Virus record (IMG/VR): IMGVR_UViG_3300032334_000080
Span: 1 to 38,490 of that record
Source: a virus
Lineage: Duplodnaviria; Caudoviricetes
DNA length: 38,490 nt
Strand: one strand, 5' to 3'
The notes beneath the pieces are model-generated. The model was given only the letters and a program-made list of their open reading frames with translations, searched no databases and was not told the DNA's origin. Shown here one piece after another: positions 2,954 through 17,227 of the stretch. The position numbers and the translations under genes are program-made. How positions within the stretch are numbered: position 1 is the stretch's first letter; each line of letters opens with the position of its first letter.

Positions 2954-3293
2954 ACTCACGCTACCTTGGCCTCCAACAGTCAACACCTATTGGCGCAACT
3001 TCAATGGTCGGGTTCTCATCAGTGCCAAGGGGCGCGAGTACCGCAAGGCAGTTGCAGATCAGGTATTGATTCAGAGAGGGGCAAAGCATTTGGACTATGC
3101 CTTGCAAGTAACCATTGCAGCATACCGACCTGACCGCAGACGCCGTGATCTTGACAACTTGCTCAAGGCAATCCTCGACTCACTCGTTCATGCGGGTGTT
3201 ATGGAGGATGACTGCTTAATTGTTGACCTTCGCATCTATTGGGAAGACGATGTAGGTGGGATGGTCAAGGTAACTATTGAGGGGGCTGAATGA
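2946..3293 (+). CDS. rusA: RusA Holliday junction resolvase
   Basis: 'LPWPPTVNTYWR', 'PDRRRRDLDNLLKAILDSL' and 'EDD' motifs. Confidence 0.93.
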   Translation: MIELTLPWPPTVNTYWRNFNGRVLISAKGREYRKAVADQVLIQRGAKHLDYALQVTIAAYRPDRRRRDLDNLLKAILDSLVHAGVMEDDCLIVDLRIYWEDDVGGMVKVTIEGAE

Positions 3294-3448
3294 CAGAAGA
3301 GCCACAACTAATCGATGTCTTTGCAATGTTTGCATTGATAGCGGTAATCCACTCCTTTAGGGGGGAGGACACAGAGTCGGCAGCATTGACTGCTTATGAA
3401 TATGCGAATGAAATGATGAAAGCGAGAGAAAAATATGTCAGCGACTGA
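3290..3448 (+). CDS. Small hypothetical protein (52 aa; not in the ORF track)
   Basis: ATGA overlap with rusA; 'IDVFAMFA...AYEYANEMMKAR' matches a common small phage protein pattern. Confidence 0.6.
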   Translation: MTEEPQLIDVFAMFALIAVIHSFRGEDTESAALTAYEYANEMMKAREKYVSD

Positions 3449-3986
3449 ACAGATGGATTTCTTTGGGGAGGAGAGAGATTTCCTCGCAGAGTTGAGACGC
3501 AACTGGACTAAAACCATAGAGGGAGATGGTGGTCATTGCCCATGTTGCGATAAGTGGGGGAAGATCAATAACTACAACCTCAATGAGACTATGGCGGCAA
3601 CTCTGAAGTGGATGACTGTGGCATCTACTGACCATGCGGGGTACATAGACATGGGGGCGCGGGCGCCGAGGTGGGCAGTTCGTGGCAAGAACTATGCGAC
3701 CATGAAGTTTTGGGGGTTTGTGGAGCCTGCACCCAAAGCCAGGCCCCAAGATAAAAAAGTCACAGGGATAGTCACTAAGACAAGTGGGCTATGGCGTGTG
3801 ACTGAGAAAGGCAGAGCCTTTATTTTTGGGGACTTGTGTGTACCCATCAAGGCTTTTGTGTATGACGACAGATTCTTTGGATGGGGTGACAAGATGACCA
3901 CATTCAAGCAGTGCTTTGGTCGCAAATTCAACTATGAAGATGTGATGGCTACTAATTTCAACTGGTTTACTTTAAGGAGAGATTGA
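3435..3986 (+). CDS. Hypothetical protein with a Cys cluster, possibly nucleic-acid binding
   Basis: 'HCPCC' and a winged-helix-like 'GLWRVTEKG' segment. Confidence 0.6.
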   Translation: MSATEQMDFFGEERDFLAELRRNWTKTIEGDGGHCPCCDKWGKINNYNLNETMAATLKWMTVASTDHAGYIDMGARAPRWAVRGKNYATMKFWGFVEPAPKARPQDKKVTGIVTKTSGLWRVTEKGRAFIFGDLCVPIKAFVYDDRFFGWGDKMTTFKQCFGRKFNYEDVMATNFNWFTLRRD

Positions 3987-4105
3987 TGGATGCTTTTCTA
4001 AATATTTTGGTTTTGTTCTTTGCTATGTCTGGCTTGGTTGGGTGGTTATTTGCCTTGGCTTGCATGGTGTTTTATTGGCTATGTCGTAGACCTTTCAAGG
4101 AGTAA
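3986..4105 (+). CDS. Small membrane protein (39 aa; not in the ORF track)
   Basis: TAAGGAG SD, TGATG coupling, hydrophobic sequence MDAFLNILVLFFAMSGLVGWLFALACMVFYWL. Confidence 0.55.
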   Translation: MDAFLNILVLFFAMSGLVGWLFALACMVFYWLCRRPFKE

Positions 4106-4107
4106 TC

Positions 4108-4437
4108 ATGGAAAACAGAAACCCACATGATGCAGTTGATTACATCTTGCTTAATGGCAAGAAGTTCGCCAAGGCGAAAGCAGAGAGGTGCTACCTTGAG
4201 GAGTATCGCAAGTCCCTCAAGGCAATATTGATGAAGCGGTCAATGGAGACCACCATTGGCGCACAGGAACGCGAGGCTTATGCCCATGAGGAGTATGTGC
4301 AGTTGCTCAAGGGTCTTAAAGAGGCTATTGAGATTGAGGAGAAACTTCGTTGGGACTTGATAGGTGCGCAGGCTCGTGTAGAGATTTGGAGAACTGAGCA
4401 AGCCAACAACCGAGCAGAGGGAAAGGCAACACTATGA
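4108..4437 (+). CDS. Conserved helical phage protein of unknown function
   Basis: AAGGAG SD; all-helical charged sequence ending '..EIWRTEQANNRAE'. Confidence 0.7.
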   Translation: MENRNPHDAVDYILLNGKKFAKAKAERCYLEEYRKSLKAILMKRSMETTIGAQEREAYAHEEYVQLLKGLKEAIEIEEKLRWDLIGAQARVEIWRTEQANNRAEGKATL

Positions 4438-4511
4438 ATGCATTTCAATGGGGAGTTGTGCTTGGGTTGGTTTTATTCGCAGCCATCTTTTATGTGGTGG
4501 AGTTCTTATGA
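4434..4511 (+). CDS. Micro membrane peptide (25 aa; not in the ORF track)
   Basis: ATGA overlaps at both ends; MNAFQWGVVLGLVLFAAIFYVVEFL forms a single TM helix. Confidence 0.45.
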   Translation: MNAFQWGVVLGLVLFAAIFYVVEFL

Positions 4512-4849
4512 CCAAAGAAGAAGAAACTGAAATTGAATTGGAGCGCATGAAACAGGCTAGAGATGCTCTCTTGATTACAAATGCAAGACTTCATGGAGAG
4601 ATTGATCGTCTAAAAAAAACACCAGAGGATGAAGAGTTTGAACGCATTGAGCGAGAGGCTCAAGGCTGGCGCAAAAGGCAAATAGCAAATGCAAAGGATG
4701 GCAAGAAGCCTTATGAAGTTGCCAAAGTCCCCAATGGTTTTTGGATTTCACCAAGACCCGGGTTTAAAGGATGGCTTGATAGTCAAGCAAATCAAGATGA
4801 ACTGCACAAGCACCTTGATGAATTTATTTGGAGAGTGCAAGACGAATGA
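4508..4849 (+). CDS. Hypothetical coiled-coil protein
   Basis: ATG at 4508 is coupled to the upstream stop; its TGA overlaps the methyltransferase ATG. Confidence 0.6.
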   Translation: MTKEEETEIELERMKQARDALLITNARLHGEIDRLKKTPEDEEFERIEREAQGWRKRQIANAKDGKKPYEVAKVPNGFWISPRPGFKGWLDSQANQDELHKHLDEFIWRVQDE

Positions 4850-6876
4850 ACTATTTATCTGTTTGTTCAGGCATAGAGGCAGCAACCTGTGCTTGGCATG
4901 ACCTAGGTTGGAATCCTGTTGGGTTCTCAGAGATTGAGAAATTCCCATCAGAAGTTTTGAAACACCATTACCCCCATGTACCTAACTTGGGAGATATGAC
5001 TAAATTTAAGGAGTGGAATCTTGGAACAAATGTCGATGTTTTCGTCGGAGGAACACCTTGCCAGTCGTTCAGTGTCGCCGGACTTAGAAAAGGATTGGAT
5101 GACCCGCGTGGGAACCTCATGCTCACCTATCTTGCAATTGCTGACCGATTTCGCCCCAAGTGGTTGGTTTGGGAGAACGTCCCCGGAGTCTTGTCATCTA
5201 ACAACGGAGAAGATTTTGGCACCTTCCTTGGAGGGTTGGGGGAACTCGGGTATGGGTTCGCATACAGAGTTCTTGACGCTCAATACTTCGGAGTGGCCCA
5301 AAGAAGGCGTCGCGTGTTCGTTATTGGACACCTTGGAGACTGGCGACCTGCCGCGGCGGTACTTTTTGAGCGCGACAGCCTGCAGAGGAATCCTCCGCCG
5401 AGCCGAAAAGCGAGAGAAAGAACTGCCGCCTTCTTTGAAAGCAGCCTTGCTCAATACCGCGCAGCAGACGTCGGAGGAACTCTCAAAGCAAGCGGAGGAG
5501 TCCTTGGAGGAGGAAGCGAAACTTTCCTCGCCCAACGAGTTGATGGATCAGGAGATGGACGAGGAGTGACTGGGCCATTGTTGGCTAGGGACTTCAAGGG
5601 TATCGACAGTTATGACCACACTAAGGTCATCCCCGTGGTCTATGAGAATCACCCTGCGGACAGTCGTGTGGAAGAGATGGGTGATGTCTGCTCAACTGTG
5701 ACATCGAGATGGGGTACAGGGGGTGGCAATGTACCCTTGGCTACTGCCGCCTACTCCATCCGTGAGGATGCCCAAGCCAACACCTTTAGTGCAACTGAGT
5801 TGGAGGTAGCGGTTGCCCTCAAGGCTTTGCAACCAAGTGTGCAGTCTCACCATGCTCAAACCTTTGTGGCTCAACCCATAGGGGTCTTGGGTAGTGAGCA
5901 TCCCAATGCCGCAGTTGCAGAGGATTTAAGCCCAACTCTGACTAGTGCCATGGGTACTGGTGGGGGTCATGTGCCTGTCTTGGACTGTTACCCCATCAGC
6001 ACACAAAATGCCTTGGGGCGCGTCAATGGGCGCGATGATTGGCCCCTAGGGCTGTTCAATGAGGGTGAGCCTGCACCTACCCTCACCAAGGCTCATGGTC
6101 ATGCCGTAGCACTATCCCCTAAGGCATACAACTTTGCACCGGGCAAGGGGGAGTTAAAGGATGACATCCATGTCACCCAAGCAGATACCACTAAAACTTT
6201 AGATGCATCAGGCAGCAACCCCGCCATGCATCAAGGGGGTGTTGGGGTTATTCATCCTAAGGCTTTCTCTTTTGATAGTGCTGAGAGCAACTCCATGAAG
6301 TCAAGCAACCCTGATAGTGGTTGCCGTGAGGTTGACCTTTCTAAGACCTTGGACACTACTCAGCCCAACCCCGCCAAAGGACAGGGCGGCATTGGCATCT
6401 TGCAACCAGTTGCCTTTAGTGCCATCGATGATGGGAGGGATGCAACTGAGGGTCTATCCCCAACTCTAAGGGTAGGGGGCAATTCTGGGGGCATGATGGG
6501 GGTCGCATTTGACACCTACAACCAAACCCTATCGGATGTGAATCAGACCATCAAAAGCCCCGTAGGAGGGGCTAATGAGTCCATAGGGACTGTTTTGTCA
6601 CCCACCTTGACTACCAACAACCCCTCAAGGTCTCCTCAAGCCTCAGAGGTCACTCAGCAAGTCAATGCCGTGTATCAAGCCTCTATGGCGGTCAGAAGAC
6701 TCACGCCAGTGGAATGTGAACGTCTTCAGGGCTTTCCTGATGGTTACACCAACATCAAGACCAACTGCCCTGATGGCCCAAGATACAAAGCCCTTGGCAA
6801 CTCTATGGCGGTGCCTGTAATGAAGTGGATTGGTCAGAGGATTGCTGACTATGAAAAGAATGTGGAGGGCAAGTGA
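4846..6876 (+). CDS. DNA (cytosine-5)-methyltransferase with a greatly expanded variable region
   Basis: Motif I SVCSGIEA, IV GGTPCQSFS, VI ENVPG, VIII QRRRRVF, IX RRLTPVECERLQGFP and X KALGNSMAVPV. About 450 aa separate VIII and IX. Confidence 0.93.
   Translation: MNYLSVCSGIEAATCAWHDLGWNPVGFSEIEKFPSEVLKHHYPHVPNLGDMTKFKEWNLGTNVDVFVGGTPCQSFSVAGLRKGLDDPRGNLMLTYLAIADRFRPKWLVWENVPGVLSSNNGEDFGTFLGGLGELGYGFAYRVLDAQYFGVAQRRRRVFVIGHLGDWRPAAAVLFERDSLQRNPPPSRKARERTAAFFESSLAQYRAADVGGTLKASGGVLGGGSETFLAQRVDGSGDGRGVTGPLLARDFKGIDSYDHTKVIPVVYENHPADSRVEEMGDVCSTVTSRWGTGGGNVPLATAAYSIREDAQANTFSATELEVAVALKALQPSVQSHHAQTFVAQPIGVLGSEHPNAAVAEDLSPTLTSAMGTGGGHVPVLDCYPISTQNALGRVNGRDDWPLGLFNEGEPAPTLTKAHGHAVALSPKAYNFAPGKGELKDDIHVTQADTTKTLDASGSNPAMHQGGVGVIHPKAFSFDSAESNSMKSSNPDSGCREVDLSKTLDTTQPNPAKGQGGIGILQPVAFSAIDDGRDATEGLSPTLRVGGNSGGMMGVAFDTYNQTLSDVNQTIKSPVGGANESIGTVLSPTLTTNNPSRSPQASEVTQQVNAVYQASMAVRRLTPVECERLQGFPDGYTNIKTNCPDGPRYKALGNSMAVPVMKWIGQRIADYEKNVEGK
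5021..5569 (+). CDS. Out-of-frame nested gene, putative methyltransferase second (beta) subunit, M.EcoHK31I-beta-like
   Basis: 182-codon +1-frame ORF with TAAGGAG (5007-5013) 7 nt before TTG. 'WGNSGM...EFLTLNTSEWP...CSLLDTLE...RYFLS' resembles the EcoHK31I beta polypeptide as I recall it. CpG density jumps exactly over this ORF. Confidence 0.75.
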   Translation: MEQMSMFSSEEHLASRSVSPDLEKDWMTRVGTSCSPILQLLTDFAPSGWFGRTSPESCHLTTEKILAPSLEGWGNSGMGSHTEFLTLNTSEWPKEGVACSLLDTLETGDLPRRYFLSATACRGILRRAEKREKELPPSLKAALLNTAQQTSEELSKQAEESLEEEAKLSSPNELMDQEMDEE

Positions 6877-7022
6877 TGGAGGAGAAAAAGAAAACTTGCC
6901 AAGTCTGCAGGCTTATACCTGCGGAGGTAAAGGGTAGAAACAGTAAGGGTGGCATCCAATGGAGATGTCAGACTTGCCATGACCTCAAGAACCGAATTGG
7001 ATTCACCAATAAAAAACAATGA
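6876..7022 (+). CDS. Small zinc-finger protein (48 aa; not in the ORF track)
   Basis: CQVC...WRCQTC; translationally coupled at both ends. Confidence 0.6.
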   Translation: MEEKKKTCQVCRLIPAEVKGRNSKGGIQWRCQTCHDLKNRIGFTNKKQ

Positions 7023-7288
7023 ACAACCAACTCACCAAGGTAGAGAGGGAGCATCTAGGCAGAGTCAAGGAACTACCTTGCTCTGTCTGTGATCAGCCAG
7101 GCCCCTCAGATGCTCACCACATAGAGCAAGGACTGCAATACACCTGTGTTGCCCTCTGTAAAGACTGCCATCAAGGGTCATTTAATGGGTGGCATGGGCA
7201 GAAAAGGATGTGGTCAATCAAGAAAATGGGGGAGTTGGATGCCCTAAATGTGACCTTGAAGAGGCTTTTTTCTAGGGGATTTCCCTAG
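7019..7288 (+). CDS. Ref/DUF968-like zinc-binding HNH-fold protein
   Basis: 'LPCSVC...DAHHI...VALCKDCHQG' motifs. Confidence 0.7.
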   Translation: MNNQLTKVEREHLGRVKELPCSVCDQPGPSDAHHIEQGLQYTCVALCKDCHQGSFNGWHGQKRMWSIKKMGELDALNVTLKRLFSRGFP

Positions 7289-7293
7289 GTTTT
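7272..7293 (+). terminator. Hairpin closing the replication/nin operon
   Basis: CTAGGG-GATTT-CCCTAG followed by GTTTT. Confidence 0.45.
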
Positions 7294-7335
7294 AGGGTTT
7301 TTTGCAATTATTTTCAACTTTTTTGCAAAAAGGGG

Positions 7336-7364
7336 TTGTAAATGGTTTAAGTTGGGCTTACACT
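7336..7364 (+). promoter_or_regulatory. Sigma70-like (early) promoter
   Basis: TTGTAA (7336-7341), 17-bp spacer, TACACT (7359-7364); A/T-tract palindrome TTTTTGCAAAAA immediately upstream. Confidence 0.65.
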
Positions 7365-7417
7365 TACCTCACCAACACAAAATCAGTTGGGTAACTTAAA
7401 CGAAAGCGAGTAAACAA

Positions 7418-7714
7418 ATGAATGCACCACTAAACATCTCAGCAGTATCAGTAGATACATTGGGTCAACTCTTGGCTCAAATTGCAGACCTCACCAAGCA
7501 AGCAGACATGATCAAGGATTCCATCAAAGACCAAGCATCTTTAGGAGGTGCAAAGGTTTATGAGGGTGCTTTGTTCAAGGCTACCTACATTGAGTCCAAT
7601 AGAAGTGTTGTTGATTACAAAACATTGTGTGCTGATCTTGGTATCACCTCTGAGCAACTTGCTCAATACACCAAAGCATCAGCAGTCTTCTCAGTCAAGG
7701 TCACATCTAAGTAA
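7418..7714 (+). CDS. Hypothetical early protein
   Basis: First ORF after the promoter; N-terminal coiled coil. Confidence 0.7.
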   Translation: MNAPLNISAVSVDTLGQLLAQIADLTKQADMIKDSIKDQASLGGAKVYEGALFKATYIESNRSVVDYKTLCADLGITSEQLAQYTKASAVFSVKVTSK

Positions 7715-7720
7715 ATCAAT

Positions 7721-7736
7721 TCCCCCTTAGGGGGGA
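7721..7736 (+). other. Intergenic stem-loop
   Basis: TCCCCC-TTAG-GGGGGA, no U-tract. Confidence 0.45.
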
Positions 7737-7765
7737 TCACTTCTAAACTCTTTAAGGAAACCAAA

Positions 7766-8266
7766 ATGAATTTCACAGTAAAAAACATCAAATCATTCAA
7801 TGGACATGAGGGCATTGGATATTCAGCAACTCTATACCTTGATGGCAAAAAGTTTGCAGAGGTATTGGATGATGCAAATGGGGGTGAGGTAGATGTCAAC
7901 TGCTTTGATTGGAAAGACCCAAACAAGGTCACCATCAACACCTACATTGATAAAGATGGTGTTCAGCACACATGGGATGTATCCCCTAACTATGCCCTCT
8001 TGCACAACTATGTGTTGACTCTGCCAAAGTGGAAAAGTTCATTCTCTGATGAGATGTATGACATGACTGTAGGTTTGTTTGTAGAGGAGTTGGTCAACAA
8101 GATTCTTGATGAGAAGAAGTTGGCTAAAGCAAAGAAGAAAGGTATTTGTTTCAAACTCAATACTGATGGCAAAAACACCTACAGAACCATCAACACACAT
8201 GACATGGAAGTAGCAGTAAATTATTTGAACAAGCAGTTTGGCATCAACACTTACCAATTCATTTAA
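7766..8266 (+). CDS. Hypothetical early protein
   Basis: TAAGGA SD; 166-aa ORF. Confidence 0.75.
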   Translation: MNFTVKNIKSFNGHEGIGYSATLYLDGKKFAEVLDDANGGEVDVNCFDWKDPNKVTINTYIDKDGVQHTWDVSPNYALLHNYVLTLPKWKSSFSDEMYDMTVGLFVEELVNKILDEKKLAKAKKKGICFKLNTDGKNTYRTINTHDMEVAVNYLNKQFGINTYQFI

Positions 8267-8279
8267 GGAGACCTCAATC

Positions 8280-8567
8280 ATGCTGACATTTGTAGATGTA
8301 TCAGAGTTCAAGCCAAGGGCTAAAAAGGCTGAGTTGACCCAAGAGCAAAAGCAAGAATGGTTCAACAAGGTCAAGCCAACTGCCAATTGGAAGTACCCAA
8401 TCAAGAAGACTTTAGTCCTTGAGAATGAGGATCAGATTGCAGAAGTCATGGACTCCATCATGTGGTTTGTAGGGGGTCTGACTGACTATGAGATTGTCAA
8501 GAGAATGCCTAAGTACATCTCTGTCAAGTTCTACAACCAAGGCTATTACAACAACATAGGAGCATAA
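8280..8567 (+). CDS. Hypothetical early protein
   Basis: TAAGGAG SD at 8264-8270 favours ATG 8280. Confidence 0.7.
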   Translation: MLTFVDVSEFKPRAKKAELTQEQKQEWFNKVKPTANWKYPIKKTLVLENEDQIAEVMDSIMWFVGGLTDYEIVKRMPKYISVKFYNQGYYNNIGA

Positions 8568-8569
8568 CC

Positions 8570-8914
8570 ATGGCAACCATCAGACTCAAAGAGGCTATCC
8601 AAGCCATTGCCCAAGGGGGCTACATCAAAGAGCCAAGCAATCACTTCTCAAGGTACACAACTGTCTTGGATAAAGATGGTGACCATGTTGGCTCAGTTAC
8701 TGCCAATTGCTACTATGAAGTCATGGACTACTTGAGTGGTCTATGGAAACATGGATGCCAACTCAAGGGAGATGACTACCTTGATAGGGTGTATCACTAC
8801 TCAACAGTCAAGGGTGACTTCAAGCACCTTGATCAGATATTGGCAAAACCATTGACAGAAAGATTGATGCAGAGTTTAGTTAGACAACAAGAGGAGGAAG
8901 AGGCTCATGTCTGA
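8570..8914 (+). CDS. Hypothetical early protein
   Basis: AGGAG SD; 114-aa ORF. Confidence 0.7.
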   Translation: MATIRLKEAIQAIAQGGYIKEPSNHFSRYTTVLDKDGDHVGSVTANCYYEVMDYLSGLWKHGCQLKGDDYLDRVYHYSTVKGDFKHLDQILAKPLTERLMQSLVRQQEEEEAHV

Positions 8915-9068
8915 AACAACCATGTCAGAGTACATCAAGGGGTTCAATAGTGGCTATGAATATGTCCTCCATGAGGTAGAGAACTTTATCAAGGCTTACC
9001 CATCAAAGGAGTTTGCCTTGCATGAGTTGTTGGCTCACCTCAAGATGGAGGGCAAGCCCCATGACTAG
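8907..9068 (+). CDS. Small hypothetical protein (53 aa, MSETTMSEY...; not in the ORF track)
   Basis: Purine-rich SD; fills the gap and overlaps both neighbours. Confidence 0.6.
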   Translation: MSETTMSEYIKGFNSGYEYVLHEVENFIKAYPSKEFALHELLAHLKMEGKPHD

Positions 9069-9222
9069 ATCACCCATCCAAGATGTTTGTATGCTCAAGA
9101 TTAGGATACTGCTCCATTCCAAAAGATTGGCTCAGTTGACTGAGAAGAGAGTTGAGAGGCAAGTGTATTTAAAGTTTCGTAAACAAATAACCGAATCGGT
9201 TTTACAAGGAGAGTTGGTATGA
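9061..9222 (+). CDS. Small basic hypothetical protein
   Basis: ATG at 9061 after GGAGG; the stop overlaps the next ATG. Confidence 0.45.
   Translation: MTRSPIQDVCMLKIRILLHSKRLAQLTEKRVERQVYLKFRKQITESVLQGELV
9189..9201. promoter_or_regulatory. Palindromic site AACCGAATCGGTT, identical to the origin iteron
   Basis: Exact match to 126-138; lies just upstream of the SD of ORF 9219. Confidence 0.5.
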
Positions 9223-9479
9223 CACATTTTGAAACCATGGACACCATAGTTAAGAACTTCTTTGACAATCTGCCAAAGGTAAGGCTTGCCTACTGTGACT
9301 ACATTGCCCATCTGATCCAAGGCAACCTCAAGGCAAATGATACTGAGAGGATGCTCTCAAGTGTTGGTCGGACTCAGTATGACACCGACCCTAGTGGCTC
9401 ATTTGCCTCTACCAAGAAGACCATCATGGTTGAGGATCGGAATGGCAAGCAGTACAGGATTACTGTGGAGGAGGTGTGA
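9219..9479 (+). CDS. Hypothetical protein
   Basis: AAGGAG SD; 86-aa ORF. Confidence 0.7.
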   Translation: MTHFETMDTIVKNFFDNLPKVRLAYCDYIAHLIQGNLKANDTERMLSSVGRTQYDTDPSGSFASTKKTIMVEDRNGKQYRITVEEV

Positions 9480-9634
9480 CAGAGAGGGGGGCTGCACTGC
9501 TCCTCTTTTCCTTTTGGTTTGTATTGATTGGGGCCTATGTGGTCAAGGAGGGGAGCAAGCCTCCCCCAAAGCCAAGGGTGCTGATTGTGCAACCCCCTGT
9601 AGAAGTTCCCAAAAGTTTAAAGGATTGGATATGA
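9476..9634 (+). CDS. Small membrane protein with a Pro-rich tail (52 aa; not in the ORF track)
   Basis: GTGA and ATGA overlaps at the two ends; MTERGAALLLFSFWFVLIGAYVVKEGSKPPPKP... Confidence 0.55.
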   Translation: MTERGAALLLFSFWFVLIGAYVVKEGSKPPPKPRVLIVQPPVEVPKSLKDWI

Positions 9635-9768
9635 ACCGACATGAGATAGACAACATGATGAGAGACCTACCAAGTCAGCATGACTACTACCATGAAGAGC
9701 CATTGTGGGAGAAATGCATCATGGGCTTTCTATTTATCGCATTTGTGGTTACCATCTGCTTTATCTAA
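9631..9768 (+). CDS. Small protein with a C-terminal TM helix (45 aa)
   Basis: AAGGA SD, ATG 9631; ends IMGFLFIAFVVTICFI. Confidence 0.55.
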   Translation: MNRHEIDNMMRDLPSQHDYYHEEPLWEKCIMGFLFIAFVVTICFI

Positions 9769-9802
9769 AAAGCGAATCTATATTGAACCGAAAGTGAATC
9801 TA

Positions 9803-9815
9803 AACCGATTCGGTT
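9803..9815. promoter_or_regulatory. Palindromic site AACCGATTCGGTT upstream of terS
   Basis: Reverse complement of the iteron; degenerate copies nearby (9771, 9786, 9945-9957). Confidence 0.5.
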
Positions 9816-9851
9816 ATGCATGGTGAATGAGGACACCTATAAACCTCTGAC

Positions 9852-9879
9852 TCCTAGGAAAGACTAGGACTTTTCTTTT
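9852..9879 (+). terminator. Rho-independent terminator candidate
   Basis: TCCTAG-GAAAGA-CTAGGA followed by CTTTTCTTTT. Confidence 0.5.
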
Positions 9880-9993
9880 GTGCTGAGATATAGTAGAATG
9901 AATGTTATGTTGGCAATCAGCCCAACAACCCAATAGCGACCCAAAAGCGAATCGATTTCGGCAATCATTCACTTCTCATGGGGACTAAGGGTC

Positions 9994-10638
9994 ATGCCTG
10001 AAACTAAAAAGACTGCAAAGAAACCTACAGGGGCCGCAAAGGCTCAAGGTGCAGTTGCCCCCAAAATGCGGAAAGCCACAAGGGCAGAGAAGATCACTAA
10101 GCCCGGTGTCTATGAAGTTCCCGCCCAAAATTCCCCCGAACCCAAAACAAAGCCCAAGATAGGCAGACCATCTAACTATGACCCTGAGATAGCAAGGATC
10201 ATATGTGAACAACTAAGTGAGGGAATACCACTTAGACAGATATGTAGAGAGAACCAAGGCTTTCCTGCGTGGAGGACTGTTTACGATTGGATGGGTCGCG
10301 ACCCCGCTCTTTCCGCATCCATCGCACGCGCCCGAGATATTGGCTATGACGCTTTAGCCGAGGAATGCCTGCAGATTGCTGACAACATGGAGTTTGGGCA
10401 GGTGCAAACCATGACCGACAAGGGGTCGTCAACGACCGTGGAGGATATGCTCGGTCACCGCAAATTGCGGATTGAGACCCGGCTCAAGTTACTGGCTAAG
10501 TTCCATCCCACCAAATATGGGGATAGGGTTGCCATCGAGGGGGTTGATGGAGGTGCGACCATCAAGACCGAGGACACGACTGCCCATAAGTTCCTTGAGA
10601 TCATCCGCAACATGGAGATGACCAAGCGTGCTGGCTGA
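9994..10638 (+). CDS. terS: Terminase small subunit (Sf6/P22-like)
   Basis: 'GRPSNYDPEIARIICEQLSEG..LRQIC', 'ARARDIGYD' and 'RKLRIETRLKLLAK..P.KYGD'; directly upstream of terL. Confidence 0.88.
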   Translation: MPETKKTAKKPTGAAKAQGAVAPKMRKATRAEKITKPGVYEVPAQNSPEPKTKPKIGRPSNYDPEIARIICEQLSEGIPLRQICRENQGFPAWRTVYDWMGRDPALSASIARARDIGYDALAEECLQIADNMEFGQVQTMTDKGSSTTVEDMLGHRKLRIETRLKLLAKFHPTKYGDRVAIEGVDGGATIKTEDTTAHKFLEIIRNMEMTKRAG

Positions 10639-12058
10639 GTTGCTCGATGACCAGACCGCAGCAGAGTTTGAGACCCTGCCGGAACATAACCGCATTGCTT
10701 TTGTCGCCCATGCCCAGTGGATAGCCCAGGCCCATTCCTATCAAATCCCCCCGGACTTGCATATGGATTACCGGGTTTTCTTGATGCTCGCAGGTCGTGG
10801 GGCCGGCAAGACTAGGTCGGCAGCCGAGGCTTTGTGGTGGTGGGCCTGGACTCATCCCGGGACTATGAGCATTGTGCTGGCGCCGACTTCCGGGGACTTG
10901 AAATTCACCTGCTATGAGGGGCCGTCAGGCTTGCTCGCCTGCATTCCAGAGGCTCTGGTCTTGGACTACAACAAGCAGGATCACCTCATCAAACTGTCTA
11001 ATGGGTCAAAGATAAGGGGTGTATCGGCTGACTCCTATGACCGCCTACGGGGTATCAACTCCTCATTCTGCTGGTGTGATGAGTTGGCAGCATTCAACTA
11101 TCTTGGCCCCAATGAGGCTTGGGACAACATGATGCTTGGTCTTCGTATCAAGCCAGACACCAATGAGCATAGTCAGCCCCGGGTGATTGTGACCACGACT
11201 CCGCGCCCAAAGGACTTGATCCTTGATCTGGTCGGCAGGGAGGGTGATGATGTGGTGGTCTCACGCGCCAGCACCTATGACAATGCCAAGAACCTCGATA
11301 AGGCTTTCCAGAGGCAGTTGGAGTCCTATAAGGGCAGCAAACTCTACTTGCAAGAGGTTCTGGGTGAGATTGTTGACCTCGAGGATGGCAAGGTGGTCAA
11401 CCGGGATATGTTCCAGATGTGGCCCGCTGATCGACCATTCCCCAAGTTTGAGTACATCGTCCAGTCCTATGACTGTGCCTACACCGACAAGGAATACAAC
11501 GACCCAACCGCCATGACCACATGGGGAGTCTTCAAGCCCATGGATGGCCCCATGTCCGTCTTGCTTGTGGACTGCTGGGCTGAACACCTTACCTTTCCCC
11601 AACTCAAGCCTAAGGTCATCGAGGAGTGGCGCGTCTCTTATGGTGAGGGGCGCGATGCCAAGCGACCAGACTTGATCCTCGTTGAGGGTAAGGCATCTGG
11701 CAAGTCCTTGATCCAAGAGTTGCAGGCGATGCACTTGCCTGTCCGTGAGTGGAATCCCGGTCATGCCGACAAGATGACCCGCCTCCAGATCACCGCCTCC
11801 ATCTTCACCACTGGGCGCGTCTGGCTGCCTGAGTCCTCTGTCCGCAAGGGCTATGTCAAGGACTGGTGTGAGGGATTCCTCTCCCAGATATGTGCTTTCC
11901 CGGATGCCCGCCATGATGACTATGTGGATTCAGCCACCCAAGCCATGCGTCTGCTCAAGGACATGGGATTCCTAGACATAAACCCGGAGCCTCGTTATGA
12001 TGATGAGGATGACTATTACGATGTAAAACCCAAGCGGGTCAACCCTTATGCGGTGTAA
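10628..12058 (+). CDS. terL: Terminase large subunit
   Basis: Walker A AGRGAGKT, Walker B WCDE, TTTP coupling motif, RNase H-like 'SYDCA' and 'HDDYVDS'. Confidence 0.95.
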   Translation: MLAELLDDQTAAEFETLPEHNRIAFVAHAQWIAQAHSYQIPPDLHMDYRVFLMLAGRGAGKTRSAAEALWWWAWTHPGTMSIVLAPTSGDLKFTCYEGPSGLLACIPEALVLDYNKQDHLIKLSNGSKIRGVSADSYDRLRGINSSFCWCDELAAFNYLGPNEAWDNMMLGLRIKPDTNEHSQPRVIVTTTPRPKDLILDLVGREGDDVVVSRASTYDNAKNLDKAFQRQLESYKGSKLYLQEVLGEIVDLEDGKVVNRDMFQMWPADRPFPKFEYIVQSYDCAYTDKEYNDPTAMTTWGVFKPMDGPMSVLLVDCWAEHLTFPQLKPKVIEEWRVSYGEGRDAKRPDLILVEGKASGKSLIQELQAMHLPVREWNPGHADKMTRLQITASIFTTGRVWLPESSVRKGYVKDWCEGFLSQICAFPDARHDDYVDSATQAMRLLKDMGFLDINPEPRYDDEDDYYDVKPKRVNPYAV

Positions 12059-12061
12059 AAC

Positions 12062-15000
12062 ATGGGCGCACTAAACATACTGGCTAAGACGGCCAAGGCA
12101 GCAAATGAGGCGGATAAGGCTTTGCCCCTGCGTCTGGCTCGTGCCGCGCCCAAGAGTCAAGCAGAGATTGATGCTCTGGCAACCCGGGTCTCTAAGCAGA
12201 TGCTAGGTGAACACGTGTCTAGTGGCAAGCCCAAGGACACCACCAACTTGGCTGGGCGGTCTCGCAAGGAGAATGAGCGCGTCAAGGGCCTGGACTATGA
12301 GGTGACTCCGACTGGAGCCGCCAAGGAATCGGTGATCTACCAGCCCCGCAAGGGTGATGTGAATGTGGCGATCCCCGGTGACCAGACCATCTCCGACTCC
12401 ATCCTGCGCAGAGTTGGGGACATTGAGGGCATTGATTCCCACCAACAGGGTGGGGCAAGGTATGGCTTGGGCAAGATGCATGAGGAAGACCCGCTCTTTT
12501 GGGCATCTGGTGAGGGTCCGGCTCAGATGGCTCAAAACAAGTTTGGGCGCGTGGGTGACTTCTATGACCCAGAGCGTGTGGTCGGTCAGCACTTGGCTAT
12601 GGGGCCTGTCTCCAACAACTTTGCCATGCACTTTGCTGATGCCAACCTAAGGGCAATGGACTACTCCAAGATCAAGCCCAAGGATATGCAAGCCTTTGAC
12701 AGGCTGATTGCCAATGGCTATGTCAAGAAGAATCAGAAGACAGGGCAGATGGAACACATCAACTTCCCTGAGTGGCCCGGCATTGCCGACCCTGATGCAG
12801 CCCTTGAGGTGATGAAAGCCAACCCTGAGTTGCGGAAGTGGTTCAATGACCGCATGAAGACACCTAAGGTAACTCAGCCCTTGGGTCTGCCTAATGGCTT
12901 GGACATCCAATGGGCTATTACCGAGCCACAGTTGCGGAACATGGAGGTCAATCTGACTGGCTTGTCTGCAGGTGAGATGGTTCCGGGCGCCAGCCTAACC
13001 GACACCGCGGCACACAATACCTATGAGAAAGGGATTCGTGGCAAGGCTTTGGGTCATCAAGAGGTCTTGACCCCATTCACCCTGTCCTATCCAGATGCAG
13101 CACAGCACATCGCCTCAACTCAGCGCCCCCAAGACTTCACGGGGACTATCCAAAAGGTCTTCCCCCATCAGTTGGTAGATGACCAATGGCTCGATGAGGT
13201 GGCTAAGTACCGCGAGTTGATCAAGAAATACACCGGGCAGAAGTCTGGTGGTGAGATTCATATGTCCAACTTTGAGAAGCGACTCAGAGGGATCAAGGAC
13301 GAAGAGGGCAAGGATGCCATGCGTAAGATCATGGCTCTGATGGCTGGCATGATCAAGGGTCAGCCTACCGACATTGCCTCCCAGACATTCAAGGGTCGAG
13401 ACTACAAGACCAAGAAAAACCCAAGCCCAACAAGCCCATCCATGCCATCGTTTGCCTTTAAGGGCAAGCAGTATGCAGAGGGTGGGGTAACCGAGTCTGA
13501 ACCGAGTCGGTTTCGCTTGCCTAAGTTCCGCCGTGGTGGTGGATCGCAAAAGGGCAAGGACAGACCAATGTATGAGGCATTCACCCAAGGTCTTGGCCCC
13601 ATGCTCTATGGTGCAGCAAGGGGAACTGCCGCAGGACTTGCTGGCGCGCCCGGTGACATTGAGGAATTGGGTCGCATGGGTATCAACTATGTTGGTGAAA
13701 AGGCGGGCAAGCCTAACCTTGTGAATGAAGAGTCGGCTCTGCCAACCTCTGAGCGAGTGCTAAAGAAGATTCCATCCCTCAAGGATTTGGGGGCAAGCAA
13801 GGCGGCTCAACACTCTGAGGATTTCGGCAGCAACATGGGTATGTATGGCGTTTCTCAGATTGTCGCGCCCAAGGCGGGGACAACCATAGCCAAAGGTGCT
13901 AAGACCTTAGGCAAGGAACTAGGTGAGACTGCTGCACACAAGATTGCAACCGGTCAGCCCCTCATTCCCGGTCTGCCTGCATCCATGACCAATCCCCCTG
14001 TGATGAACATCATCAAGCCAGAGGGTGGCAATTGGCGAAGTGGAGAGGTAGAGAAAGCCTTGAAGAGGCTCAAGGATAGTTCTGAGATGCACAATGCAGA
14101 ACACATTCGTGGCAATCCACAAAAGGTCTATGAAGACAGAATAGACACCTTGGACAAGGTTAGCCAAAAGGCAAAGGATGCCGGGCAATGGGATGATGCC
14201 ATGGAGCGGCAATATGCTGGACTTAGGCAGAATGCCCTCAACAACCTTGCCTTGGATAAGTGGGTTGACTCCAATCTCACCAACTATGTCAAAAAACAAA
14301 TGGGGTCGGAGAAAGACCCTGTCCGCCTATTGGCTGATGAGGGGGTTACTCACTATGCCAATGAGGGAGCAATGCGAGAGGCATTGGATTCAAGTTATCA
14401 GCAAAGCCATAATGCAAGGCTTTTGCGTGAGAGATATGGGATGCCATCCAACCCTATAGCCCAAACCAACATGGGCAAGACTTGGGAACAAGGTGTTGAT
14501 GATCTGCTTGGGCATGACATCAGCAAGACATACATTACAGACAAGCGCATCAAAGATAACCCATGGATGGCAAACATACCCAAGAACACCCCGTTCTATG
14601 GCATGGATGACTACCATACAAGGCAATTTGGCTTTGACCATATCCTTGATGTCTTGAAAGAAGACTTGGCATCTGGTCGCATCCGACCCGACCAACTCAA
14701 CAAGGTCTCAATGAAGCAGGCTGTTGAGCGCACCCATCAGTACAACTTGGATAAAGCCAAGGAGATGGAGAATGCCGTTATCAAGCAGCAAGAGGGTTTC
14801 CCTATCCACAAGGAATATCCAGAAGGCTATCGATGGCTTGAACTGTCTTTGCCCCCAGATGATATGTTGCCCAAGGGATACAAGATCATCAAGAATCCAG
14901 ATGTTGTTACCCCCAAAGATGGTGACCCATATCTGTTGCTCAATGACCAAGGTACTCCAATAGCCTTTGGTGATTCACCCGCAGAAATCATGCGAGGCAT

Positions 15001-17227
15001 CAGCCCAGACATGAAGCCGGGTTATCAGAAACTGAAAGATGCCCTTGACTATGAGGGCAGCACCATGGGTCATTGCGTAGGCTCATACTGTGATGAAGTA
15101 TCTGGTGGTGGCACTAAGATTTATTCCCTCAGAGACAAAAAGGGTGAGCCTCATGTAACTGTAGAAGTTCAGCCCGGACATGGCGATCAATCAATGGAAG
15201 CGGTAGAAGAGCGCTATAGACAAGCACGTGCTGCTGATCCAGTAAACACCCCTAGAAATTTTAATGACTGGGCTGAAGCCAATGACATTGCATTTGAGGC
15301 AGATACTTTCCGTCACCCTAGCATCATGCAAATCAAGGGAAAGCAAAACCGCGCCCCTAAGGATGAGTATTTACCCTATGTCCAAGACTTTGTAAAAAAC
15401 AATAATTGGGCAGTAATTGGTGACTTGAAAAATACGGGATTAAAGTCTATCAATGATGCTTTTCCAAATTATGAAGACCGCAAATTTTTTAGTAAGGCTA
15501 ACCCAAATACCTACTATCTAACCCAAGCAGAAATTGATGCTCACAACAAGGAGGTCAATGAGGCACTTCTTAATGAGTTTTCCAAGCACCGTCTCAAGCC
15601 AGACCCTGAGTCAAAGAACACCCTAGGCCGCAATGACTTGATGACCATCAGAGAATTGGCTGAGTTGGAGTTTCCCGGTGATTTGCAAAAGCAAGCCAAC
15701 ATGATCCGTGGTGCAATGCAAGGCACTACTGAGCCGGGTGCTTATAGTGGCTCAATCTTCCCTCCCCTTGAGGAGAAAAAGGGCGGAGCAATCTCTGTCC
15801 CCAAGTTCACCCTCAAGATGGGTGCGGGCGGCTTGCTCAAGGGCGCGATCAAAGGTGCAAAAGCAATTAAAAAGGCTGAGGCTCCAAGCATCATCATCCC
15901 TAGTGACATCAGTAAAGTCAAAGAGGCTATCCGCCAAAGCAAGGGTGACTTTGGTGCAAGGCGAGTAGAGCGTGCTGCTGATGAGATTCCTAACCTTGAA
16001 AAAATGTACAAAGAAAAGGCTTTGCAAGATGCCTTTGGTGGTGACAATGCTAAAGCCATGATGACCATGAACCCTGCGGACTTTGAAAAGTACGCCACTC
16101 CAGTAATTGAAAGAACAAGACATTGGGGCAGTTTGGGTGCAAGTGACCCTGACAAAATCAATTTGCCTACAGAAGACTACATAAAGTATCTAAGGACTGT
16201 TGGGCCTTTTGATGATGTTCCATTTTTAGAAATCAACAAGCAAGAAGAGGGTTTACCCCTAGTCCCATTTATTTCTGGGCATGAGGGTCGCCACCGCAAT
16301 AGAACCTTGGCAAATAAGGGTGAGAACACAGGGCTTGTCCAACTGTTGCCACGTGCTGAGTTGCGTGAACCTTTCCCACGTCGCTCTCAAGAGGAGTACA
16401 TTGAGGCTTTGAAGAAAGAACTAGAGATGACCAATAATGTGGTTGAGCCTCAAGTTTATTTTTCGCGGGATGCCTTTGCTCACCCTCCACAAATTAGACG
16501 CCCTGCAATTAAGTTGCCAGACATTTATGCCAAAGGCGGTATAGCCTTGGGTGCGGGCGGTTTACTCAAAAATGCCCTCAAAGGAATCAAAGGCACACAA
16601 GAGATATTGCCCGCGGTTGAGCGAGAGGCTAACAAAGCCAAGTACCTCAAGGACAGTAAGGTGCAAACCCAAGCCTATCATGGCCCCGGCAGATTCAATG
16701 GGGTGACCGACATTGACAAGTTCAGAACCATTGAGAATGACACAGGTGGGGCCTGGTTTGCATCCAACCCTGACTATGCTACCCAATTTGGGGACAACTA
16801 TGTGATGCCTGTCCACCTCAACATGAAAAACCCTGTGGACTTGACCAAGTTTGGCAACAAGTCATTGACTGTGAACCAATGGAAGAAAGCCATGCAAAAG
16901 GCTGGGGTAGATACCTCAGAGATGCAGATTAAACCCGCGGGTGTACTAGGTGGGGCGAACAAAAAAGGTGAGCCTAACTATGACCTGTGGGAATTGATGT
17001 GGCGCAATGATGATGGACAGAACAACATCCCTGAGACCCTTATGAAACAAGGGTACGATGGAATCCTAGCGCCAGCAGAGTACGATTCAAAGACTCCAAA
17101 CTATGTTGTCTTTGAGCCAACCCAAGTTAAATCAGCCCTTGGCAATCGAGGTACTTACGATCCGAAAGACCCCAACATCAGCAAAGCCAGAGGCGGCTTG
17201 ACTTCACTAAGGAAACGATATGCCTGA
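12062..17227 (+). CDS. Large polyvalent (probably virion-packaged) protein with PcfJ-like, ParB-like and ADP-ribosyltransferase-like domains
   Basis: PcfJ-like 'EGSTMGHCVGSY...IYSLRD...PHVTVEV...QIKGKQN'; ParB-like 'GHEGRHR'; ART-PolyVal-like 'YHG...WFAS.P.YA..F...VMPVHL.MKNP...GYDGI...YVVFEPTQVKS'. Confidence 0.75.
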   Translation: MGALNILAKTAKAANEADKALPLRLARAAPKSQAEIDALATRVSKQMLGEHVSSGKPKDTTNLAGRSRKENERVKGLDYEVTPTGAAKESVIYQPRKGDVNVAIPGDQTISDSILRRVGDIEGIDSHQQGGARYGLGKMHEEDPLFWASGEGPAQMAQNKFGRVGDFYDPERVVGQHLAMGPVSNNFAMHFADANLRAMDYSKIKPKDMQAFDRLIANGYVKKNQKTGQMEHINFPEWPGIADPDAALEVMKANPELRKWFNDRMKTPKVTQPLGLPNGLDIQWAITEPQLRNMEVNLTGLSAGEMVPGASLTDTAAHNTYEKGIRGKALGHQEVLTPFTLSYPDAAQHIASTQRPQDFTGTIQKVFPHQLVDDQWLDEVAKYRELIKKYTGQKSGGEIHMSNFEKRLRGIKDEEGKDAMRKIMALMAGMIKGQPTDIASQTFKGRDYKTKKNPSPTSPSMPSFAFKGKQYAEGGVTESEPSRFRLPKFRRGGGSQKGKDRPMYEAFTQGLGPMLYGAARGTAAGLAGAPGDIEELGRMGINYVGEKAGKPNLVNEESALPTSERVLKKIPSLKDLGASKAAQHSEDFGSNMGMYGVSQIVAPKAGTTIAKGAKTLGKELGETAAHKIATGQPLIPGLPASMTNPPVMNIIKPEGGNWRSGEVEKALKRLKDSSEMHNAEHIRGNPQKVYEDRIDTLDKVSQKAKDAGQWDDAMERQYAGLRQNALNNLALDKWVDSNLTNYVKKQMGSEKDPVRLLADEGVTHYANEGAMREALDSSYQQSHNARLLRERYGMPSNPIAQTNMGKTWEQGVDDLLGHDISKTYITDKRIKDNPWMANIPKNTPFYGMDDYHTRQFGFDHILDVLKEDLASGRIRPDQLNKVSMKQAVERTHQYNLDKAKEMENAVIKQQEGFPIHKEYPEGYRWLELSLPPDDMLPKGYKIIKNPDVVTPKDGDPYLLLNDQGTPIAFGDSPAEIMRGISPDMKPGYQKLKDALDYEGSTMGHCVGSYCDEVSGGGTKIYSLRDKKGEPHVTVEVQPGHGDQSMEAVEERYRQARAADPVNTPRNFNDWAEANDIAFEADTFRHPSIMQIKGKQNRAPKDEYLPYVQDFVKNNNWAVIGDLKNTGLKSINDAFPNYEDRKFFSKANPNTYYLTQAEIDAHNKEVNEALLNEFSKHRLKPDPESKNTLGRNDLMTIRELAELEFPGDLQKQANMIRGAMQGTTEPGAYSGSIFPPLEEKKGGAISVPKFTLKMGAGGLLKGAIKGAKAIKKAEAPSIIIPSDISKVKEAIRQSKGDFGARRVERAADEIPNLEKMYKEKALQDAFGGDNAKAMMTMNPADFEKYATPVIERTRHWGSLGASDPDKINLPTEDYIKYLRTVGPFDDVPFLEINKQEEGLPLVPFISGHEGRHRNRTLANKGENTGLVQLLPRAELREPFPRRSQEEYIEALKKELEMTNNVVEPQVYFSRDAFAHPPQIRRPAIKLPDIYAKGGIALGAGGLLKNALKGIKGTQEILPAVEREANKAKYLKDSKVQTQAYHGPGRFNGVTDIDKFRTIENDTGGAWFASNPDYATQFGDNYVMPVHLNMKNPVDLTKFGNKSLTVNQWKKAMQKAGVDTSEMQIKPAGVLGGANKKGEPNYDLWELMWRNDDGQNNIPETLMKQGYDGILAPAEYDSKTPNYVVFEPTQVKSALGNRGTYDPKDPNISKARGGLTSLRKRYA

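Follow-up and report, generated by a model that had tools for sequence, protein, structure and literature searches.

A CG-free block of likely early genes beside a multi-module cytosine methyltransferase gene in a freshwater phage

The window analysed here is the whole of a 38.5-kb record (38,490 nt) of a podovirus-like freshwater phage, which also carries replication genes, terL, portal, GroES, capsid and SU10-type adaptor genes. A 676-aa C5 DNA methyltransferase with 11 tandem TRD-like modules is encoded on the plus strand at 4846-6876; PF00145 was matched in two stretches (E 7.8e-57) and the C-terminal motifs align with M.HhaI. This gene is followed, on the same strand, by an 89-aa gene (phrog_1588, 7019-7288), a terminator-like hairpin and T run (7283-7297) and a predicted sigma70-like promoter (7336-7364; TTGTAA, 17-nt spacer, TACACT) with an A/T-rich tract upstream. 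The promoter scored below the threshold of the promoter scan and was read from sequence and alignment; its -10 element and spacing are kept in 6/6 aligned loci, in support of the original prediction of such a promoter. Downstream, again on the plus strand, lie a widespread 98-aa gene (phrog_6244, 7418-7714; 1,010 homologs), a 166-aa gene (phrog_17767, 7766-8266; model pLDDT 92) and three genes without a family, of 95 aa (8280-8567), 114 aa (8570-8914) and 53 aa (8907-9068). Six open reading frames had been predicted for this block, of which five are solid and the sixth (9061-9222 or 9013-9222) is doubtful, with CGs at its end. An 86-aa gene (9219-9479), a terminator-like hairpin (9482-9509), a 45-aa gene (9631-9768), all on the plus strand, and an intergenic region (9769-9955) lead to the Sf6-like terminase small subunit gene terS (9994-10638, plus strand, PF20901). 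From their position and promoter, the genes of the block are likely early. A 1,721-aa polyvalent protein with matches to PcfJ-like and ART-PolyVal domains is encoded between terL and portal (12062-17227, plus strand); it is highly variable among relatives and would be a candidate co-injected counter-defence.

Counting of CG positions gave 1,307 for the window and none in 7409-9177, the CG-free core of what is called the island below, in exact agreement with the original prediction. Successive CGs at 7407 and 9178 leave a gap of 1,771 nt, the runner-up in the window being 408 nt. The predicted counts of two CGs within 6995-9177 (7401 and 7407, not conserved among aligned loci) and of five in the replication genes at 421-1020 were likewise exact. 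For 7409-9177, base composition predicted 77 CGs, the codon usage of the genome 57 (minimum 38 in 2,000 draws) and within-gene synonymous shuffling 37 (minimum 23 in 2,000 shuffles), so that the several dozen anticipated hold under three nulls, codon-shuffled controls included. The window as a whole is CG-poor (observed/expected, o/e, 0.58). An extended motif-purged zone reaches from the 89-aa gene to the start of terS (7019-9993) with 18 CGs in 2,975 nt, roughly half of them intergenic and many inside a repeated motif. The 89-aa gene upstream of the promoter holds 0 CG (0-1 in relatives), the 86-aa gene 3 (1-3 in relatives) and the 45-aa gene 2, and the 31 CGs of terS mark an abrupt return, consistent with the abundance predicted there. 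Low GC content was excluded as the cause, since GC occurs at a normal level as a dinucleotide and 37-57 CGs are still expected under the nulls that preserve codons. Scarcity of tRNA-Arg was excluded as well, as CGs at codon boundaries and in NCG codons are also lost. The CG gap is real and conserved and appears to be maintained by selection.

The repeated CG-bearing motif (AAMSCGAWTC-like) of the intergenic region at 9769-9955 is partly palindromic, with further copies at 9189-9201 and, inside the first replication gene, at 125 and 296; it is possibly a site for a packaging or replication protein. Among the island proteins, 8/8 lacked a PADLOC or Pfam match, and no match to a known anti-defence family or fold was obtained for the island genes (2/8 proteins folded). 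The 7418 protein gave a poor model (pLDDT 69) with no PDB match, and the best match of the 7766 protein had a Z of 4.2, a weak value that leaves a known fold possible, with look-alikes that are all uncharacterised phage proteins. The island had no match among annotated phages, and no tRNA genes were found in 8/8 loci. Contigs from two studies showed 0 differences in 652 nt over 8294-8945, with flanking genes differing by ~1-7%, an identity that reflects either constraint or a recent sweep.

The penalty on CG was then resolved by module. The CG log-odds were -4.4 in the island, -1.4 in the terminase genes, -2.4 in the polyvalent gene, -2.3 in portal, -0.5 in the head genes, -0.9 in the tail genes, -1.6 in the ejection genes, -2.4 in the leftward genes, -2.2 in the replication genes and -1.7 in the methyltransferase gene. 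CG was penalised genome-wide in 10/10 NCGN contexts, and 88% of 76 six-base contexts in the middle genes were below 0.5; from this the penalty acts at the level of the dinucleotide. Its profile is a step on a genome-wide penalty and not a gradient from either edge. The original prediction of a gradient along the order of ejection was not borne out, as the module values neither rise nor fall steadily on either side of the island. Synonymous divergence is lower in the head genes, which may mask the penalty there. The 20 runs found all consist of contigs, which do not show ends. Contig depth over 3000-14000 did not double over the island, the depth of assembled contigs being unable to rank regions; it rose ~1.5-2x over ~9.8-13.1 kb in 3/4 runs, which strain collapse explains equally well.

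Loss within the island extends beyond CG. The stretch 7409-9177 lacks CCAG, CTGG, CCTG, CAGG, GGCC, GCNGC, CCTTC and GAAGG as well as CASTG, GAAGC, GCTTC, ACAGC and GCTGT. These 13 words thus total 0, against ~40 expected from the rest of the window, an expectation scaled by length, not GC-adjusted, for words picked after the islands were seen. The longest gap in this non-CG panel spans 7100-9491 (2,391 nt; runner-up 733). A fairer test than the post hoc panel relied on five non-CG sites whose source is an independent lineage of 35% GC: 9 were observed against 44.8 expected (0.20) in four homologous islands, with ratios of 0.45-0.60 elsewhere. The co-purging of further cytosine-containing sites along this span favours the link to restriction or methylation drawn in the original prediction. 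GATC is not purged, with 6 sites in 7409-9177 and 7/9, 11/9.5 and 8/6.4 in the islands of the window and of the relatives G002 and G003.

When synonymous codon choice was modelled by conditional logit, two motif classes emerged. A constant class (AGCT, GGWCC, GDGCHC, RCATGY and RGATCY) is purged in nearly every module, the AGCT penalty being -3.4 to -6.1 in every one, and is ordinary avoidance of type II sites. In a graded class the island is at or near the strongest; it comprises CG, CCAG, CCTG, GGCC, CCTTC, CACTG, ACAGC and CCACC, every one of which contains C. Penalties in the island were -4.4 for CG, -4.2 for CCAG, -3.8 for GGCC, -3.8 for ACAGC, -2.9 for CCTTC, -2.8 for CACTG and -2.3 for CCTG. 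A general early inhibitor of restriction would relax AGCT too, and the relaxation outside the island is accordingly motif-specific. This bears on a classic leader of the T5/T7 type, in which fixed termini put the block first into the cell and an early general anti-restriction protein shields later DNA. Small genes without known function behind a strong-looking promoter would suit such a leader, for which passages of PMC12455610 offer a precedent, and in the syntenic Caulobacter phage RW the interval from terS to the end of the record, perhaps not a physical end, contains small genes. The constant class is purged everywhere, however, with no general inhibitor relaxing it, and the Sf6-like terS suggests headful packaging, for which no leader effect would be expected on the account in part of PMC12455610. 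We consider a leader of this type very unlikely. AGCT is absent from the whole window (0 vs 249 expected), and GGWCC, GDGCHC, RCATGY, TCATGA, GGTACC and AGTACT are absent or nearly so. Members of the family divide into AGCT-avoiders and GATC-avoiders, a split that is likely a fingerprint of the host.

On the coding strand, asymmetric motifs are avoided whichever way round they are read (CTGG 0/17.3, CCAG 3/17.5), which points to double-stranded DNA. The same counts weigh against a cost on the transcription or mRNA of a strongly expressed early operon, in which methylated or CG-rich DNA impedes the RNA polymerase of the host or CG is recognised by an RNase or RNA sensor. Such a cost would fit a purge that tracks an expression unit, with sharp edges from the promoter side to terS and no gradient with distance. 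Against it, gene 7019 is purged as well, upstream of both terminator and promoter, and the head genes, presumably the most expressed, are the least depleted, which makes it an improbable cause.

Substitutions between the window and its complete relative G001 (54,284 bp) were used in order to separate selection from mutation. Loss of CG by C>T occurred at 1.28 x control pooled, and up to 2.4, and gain of CG by T>C at 0.28 x control pooled, or 0.11-0.34 in 6/7 modules; the gain in the head genes was 1.01 x control. In the island, 141/324 synonymous T>C/A>G opportunities would make a CG, and only 1/45 observed differences of this kind did so across 10 loci, where 17-35 were expected. CGs of orthologs in the relative G006 were replaced by AG about as often as by TG (6 vs 6 in the island, 23 vs 15 in the replication genes). 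As gains are suppressed more than losses are raised, the substitution counts point to selection rather than deamination, as the original prediction had argued. Mutational loss, in which 5mC at CG deaminates, unconstrained early genes have run to zero and codon selection or recent import keeps CG elsewhere, draws on the mildly faster C>T loss and on CATG, TGCA and CTAG being raised in the island. The low synonymous divergence of the head genes could account for the weak depletion there, and suppressed gains could be mimicked if constrained sites were mixed with very strong hypermutation. The suppressed gains and the CG-to-AG changes speak against it; moreover, an island C fraction of 0.01 vs 0.65 would require ~100-200-fold hypermutation and the island genes are conserved, not relaxed. 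There is little chance that mutation is the explanation. Among strain variants, of which few are informative, 0/40 listed (of 60) create a CG and 4/40 listed would, each taken by itself, introduce a motif of the non-CG panel.

The distribution of the island was examined among relatives. A matching CG gap is present in 8 records besides the window and is missing from CG-normal family members, in keeping with the conservation in related phages that the original prediction had put forward as a check. Among seven loci with gene 7766, five carry the island, their gaps measuring 756-1,803 nt, and the two without it are more distant. For genes 7418 and 8570, gaps exceed 1 kb in 6 of 81 loci (5 records) and are at most 448 nt in the other 75. 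None of the 36 terL loci profiled (80 fetched) has the island (o/e 0.82-1.0, longest gap 178). In a scan for long gaps in six dinucleotides over 199 redundant loci of at least 8 kb, 19/20 top scores were CG in this clade. G006 is complete, with a capsid 97-98% identical, and lacks a PF00145 match; its CG o/e is 0.92 and it has no CCAG, CCTG, CCTTC or GAAGC penalty, and it too avoids GGCC, CCGG, GGWCC, GDGCHC and RCATGY. The complete, distant relative G005 (terL 45% identical) has a CG o/e of 0.54 with all contexts penalised; like L281 and L324, it combines a multi-module methyltransferase and CG loss with no island. The terL of the window (10628-12058) is 85-89% identical to that of many CG-normal phages and 74-82% to that of its own clade, a pattern that suggests recent exchange.

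Of the original interpretation, selection, the link to restriction or methylation, the promoter and the conservation in relatives are supported and the ejection gradient is not, and that this DNA is packaged last and enters first would be a further supposition; the adjacent multi-module C5 methyltransferase, a candidate cause, had been overlooked. Its 11 modules recur in different combinations across methyltransferase loci, judged by sequence only, and the array is longer in G001. G005 shares modules A, D, F, I and K with the window, those scored being 82-100% identical. F-type modules are carried by 5 among 97 methyltransferase loci, and 4 of these are in the top 6 for synonymous CG loss, a pattern chosen post hoc. 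Mapping of modules to motifs started from 138 loci, 96 after removal of near-duplicates, 10 own-clade or duplicate loci having been dropped beforehand. It paired D with ACAGC and CCACC, A with CCWGG and E with CACTG, pairings that are weak, confounded by kinship and, for D, contradicted by G005.

The explanation we tentatively favour, held at somewhat less than even confidence, is that the early operon is kept free of methyl groups against modification-dependent (type IV) restriction and that the phage likely methylates CG and the co-purged sites. The 11-module methyltransferase would mark CG, with module F as the candidate CG reader, together with other sites, and host type II enzymes would thereby be blocked. 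Marked DNA would be cut by modification-dependent nucleases of the host before phage counter-defences act. Methylation would then cost slightly everywhere and heavily in the operon that works first, a likely early unit of ~3 kb without CG and about eight other cytosine-containing sites, until the type IV attack is blunted by a co-injected or early protein. AGCT, GGWCC, GDGCHC, RCATGY and RGATCY are presumably outside the coverage of the methyltransferase and would be purged genome-wide instead. Passages of PMC12707154 describe type IV enzymes that read methylated CG, GCNGC and CNNR, and a trade-off between protection by methylation and type IV sensitivity; the sites of BisI and LpnPI are given as GmCNGC and CCDG in parts of PMC4926085 and PMC6329791, respectively. 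In favour of methylation by the phage, G006, a close relative without a PF00145 match, has no CG deficit and G005, which shares modules, is CG-poor. CCAG, CCTG, CCTTC and GAAGC, moreover, show no avoidance in the 35%-GC lineage that swaps genes with this clade and are therefore unlikely to be type II sites of a shared host. Several observations count against it: G005 has modules A and D and yet does not avoid CCAG and CAGC, L300 and L307 are equally poor in CG and lack an F-type module, CG is not scarce in the variant carrier L325, and the 35%-GC lineage is CG-poor with no multi-module methyltransferase in the ~13 kb seen. The island-less G005, L281 and L324, the lack of an anti-defence match in the island and the 4/40 variants creating panel motifs count against it as well.

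The 35%-GC lineage consists of L089 and L343-L345, whose records are 16-28% complete with ~13 kb seen. Its CG o/e is 0.18-0.26 in nearly all genes seen, its CG log-odds -2.3 with ten contexts all penalised, and it has zero GGCC, CASTG, CCWGG, GCWGC, CCAGC, AGCT and GATC, the first five of which look like host type II sites. General CCAG, CCTG, CCTTC and GAAGC are not purged. One member has a small, CG-richer methyltransferase and another has none. Genes are shared with the clade of the window, the first island protein being 100% identical and the promoter common. Positions 40-1345 of L089, which has Sak and YqaJ genes, correspond to 7270-8914 of the window with the promoter and homologs of three island genes; L343-L345, close to L089, hold other genes in this place, and the cassette of promoter and island genes looks mobile. 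A search for hosts gave one contig with a 75% homolog in a Limnohabitans MAG, plus one weak hit, and a single Betaproteobacteria label among the 120 homologs listed. L344 DNA gave 6 weak matches and no host against 301 genomes of the family of this MAG, the best being on the small methyltransferase, and had no match among annotated phages. These are weak hints at a host in the Betaproteobacteria.

The CG poverty of this unrelated, gene-swapping lineage suits a CG-directed defence of the host, either a CG methyltransferase and nuclease or a CG-reading nuclease, beside many type II systems. Phages of this host would lose CG, and the present clade would tolerate sites elsewhere through its methyltransferase or an early inhibitor, cover on which the first-exposed operon cannot count. 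The depletion of the five sites in the four islands fits, as does a CG deficit common to two different backbones (L281/L324 and L300/L307). We know of no restriction enzyme with a bare CG site, which counts against such a defence. Virion DNA methylated by the phage enzyme would, in addition, be protected evenly, so that a further assumption is required to account for the island. The avoidance of CCAG, CCTG, CCTTC and GAAGC is confined to the clade, no CG deficit accompanies the overlapping restriction signature of G006, and the remaining 70-80% of the 35%-GC genomes may carry a methyltransferase of their own. Four candidate host genera have a CpG o/e of 1.2-1.7 (one row each in the part of PMC11282364 concerned), which, if they are hosts, implies defence rather than mimicry. 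A defence driven by the host in this way is possible and rather doubtful. Methylation by the phage under type IV restriction is preferred, as it explains both the clade-specific motifs and the purging of one operon despite even methylation. The host-driven account stays close to it, and the two can combine, both being restriction tied to 5-methylcytosine.

Position-specific avoidance of sites is established for T5, T7 and Murciavirus in the relevant part of PMC12455610, and leading regions of plasmids are not consistently depleted according to a section of PMC13478746. As in T5 first-step transfer, T7 and Murciavirus/Mme2I (PMC12455610, in part), a motif is missing from an early block and present elsewhere, a likeness at the level of sequence. 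Unlike in those phages, the purge here concerns a dinucleotide and, in both orientations, a panel of sites containing C; partial selection also acts on the remainder of the genome, and a link to methylated DNA and the phage's own methyltransferase is likely. CG is lost in all contexts, as in the depletion by the CpG-specific M.MpeI and M.SssI covered in part of PMC11282364, but by suppressed gain and transversion rather than by fast C>T decay, and with a concentration in one operon. Genome-wide type II site avoidance in phages, as outlined in PMC12707154, fits the constant class and does not cover the uniform CG penalty or the local purge. The dinucleotide target and the link to a modular methyltransferase are unusual relative to early-region site avoidance. 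No CG-free phage early region or CG-reading multispecific phage methyltransferase was found in open-access titles and abstract openings, a search without REBASE and bioRxiv supplements that leaves an earlier description possible. In its flanking C5 motifs and tandem exchangeable TRD-like modules, the enzyme resembles multispecific methyltransferases of the phi3T/SPR/rho11s type, with which a 1996 study by Trautner reportedly deals; it differs in its 11 modules, in belonging to a large shuffled freshwater pool and in its hypothetical CG-reading module.

In several phage lineages, selection appears to act against CG as a dinucleotide, here with a sharply bounded local purge and a panel of co-purged motifs. 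Whether CG is a target of bacteria, and how costly DNA methylation is to a phage facing type IV restriction, thereby become testable. The sites missing from the operon serve as a prediction of what the 11-module methyltransferase recognises, and the enzyme can be cloned and assayed without culture of the host. More broadly, freshwater bacteria might carry an antiviral system keyed to the CG dinucleotide, whether or not it is methylated. Such a system would be powerful enough to have recoded phage genomes and emptied an early operon of CG, with a mix-and-match phage methyltransferase containing a CG-reading module as its counterpart. We regard this as rather unlikely; if true, bacteria would have an equivalent of the CpG sensing of eukaryotes, and early operons purged of motifs could reveal what a large, unexplored set of methyltransferase modules recognises. 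G005, which also has a multi-module C5 methyltransferase, carries a 2OG-Fe(II) oxygenase gene among its early-region genes (L337:1683-2408). Variable regions of freshwater phage C5 methyltransferases range from 78 to >500 aa and draw on a large shuffled pool of TRD-like modules; ~990 such stretches, loci L178-L255 and L267-L336 among them, are estimated in the viral collection, and synonymous CG loss tends to be stronger where module arrays are longer (Spearman -0.28, n=97).
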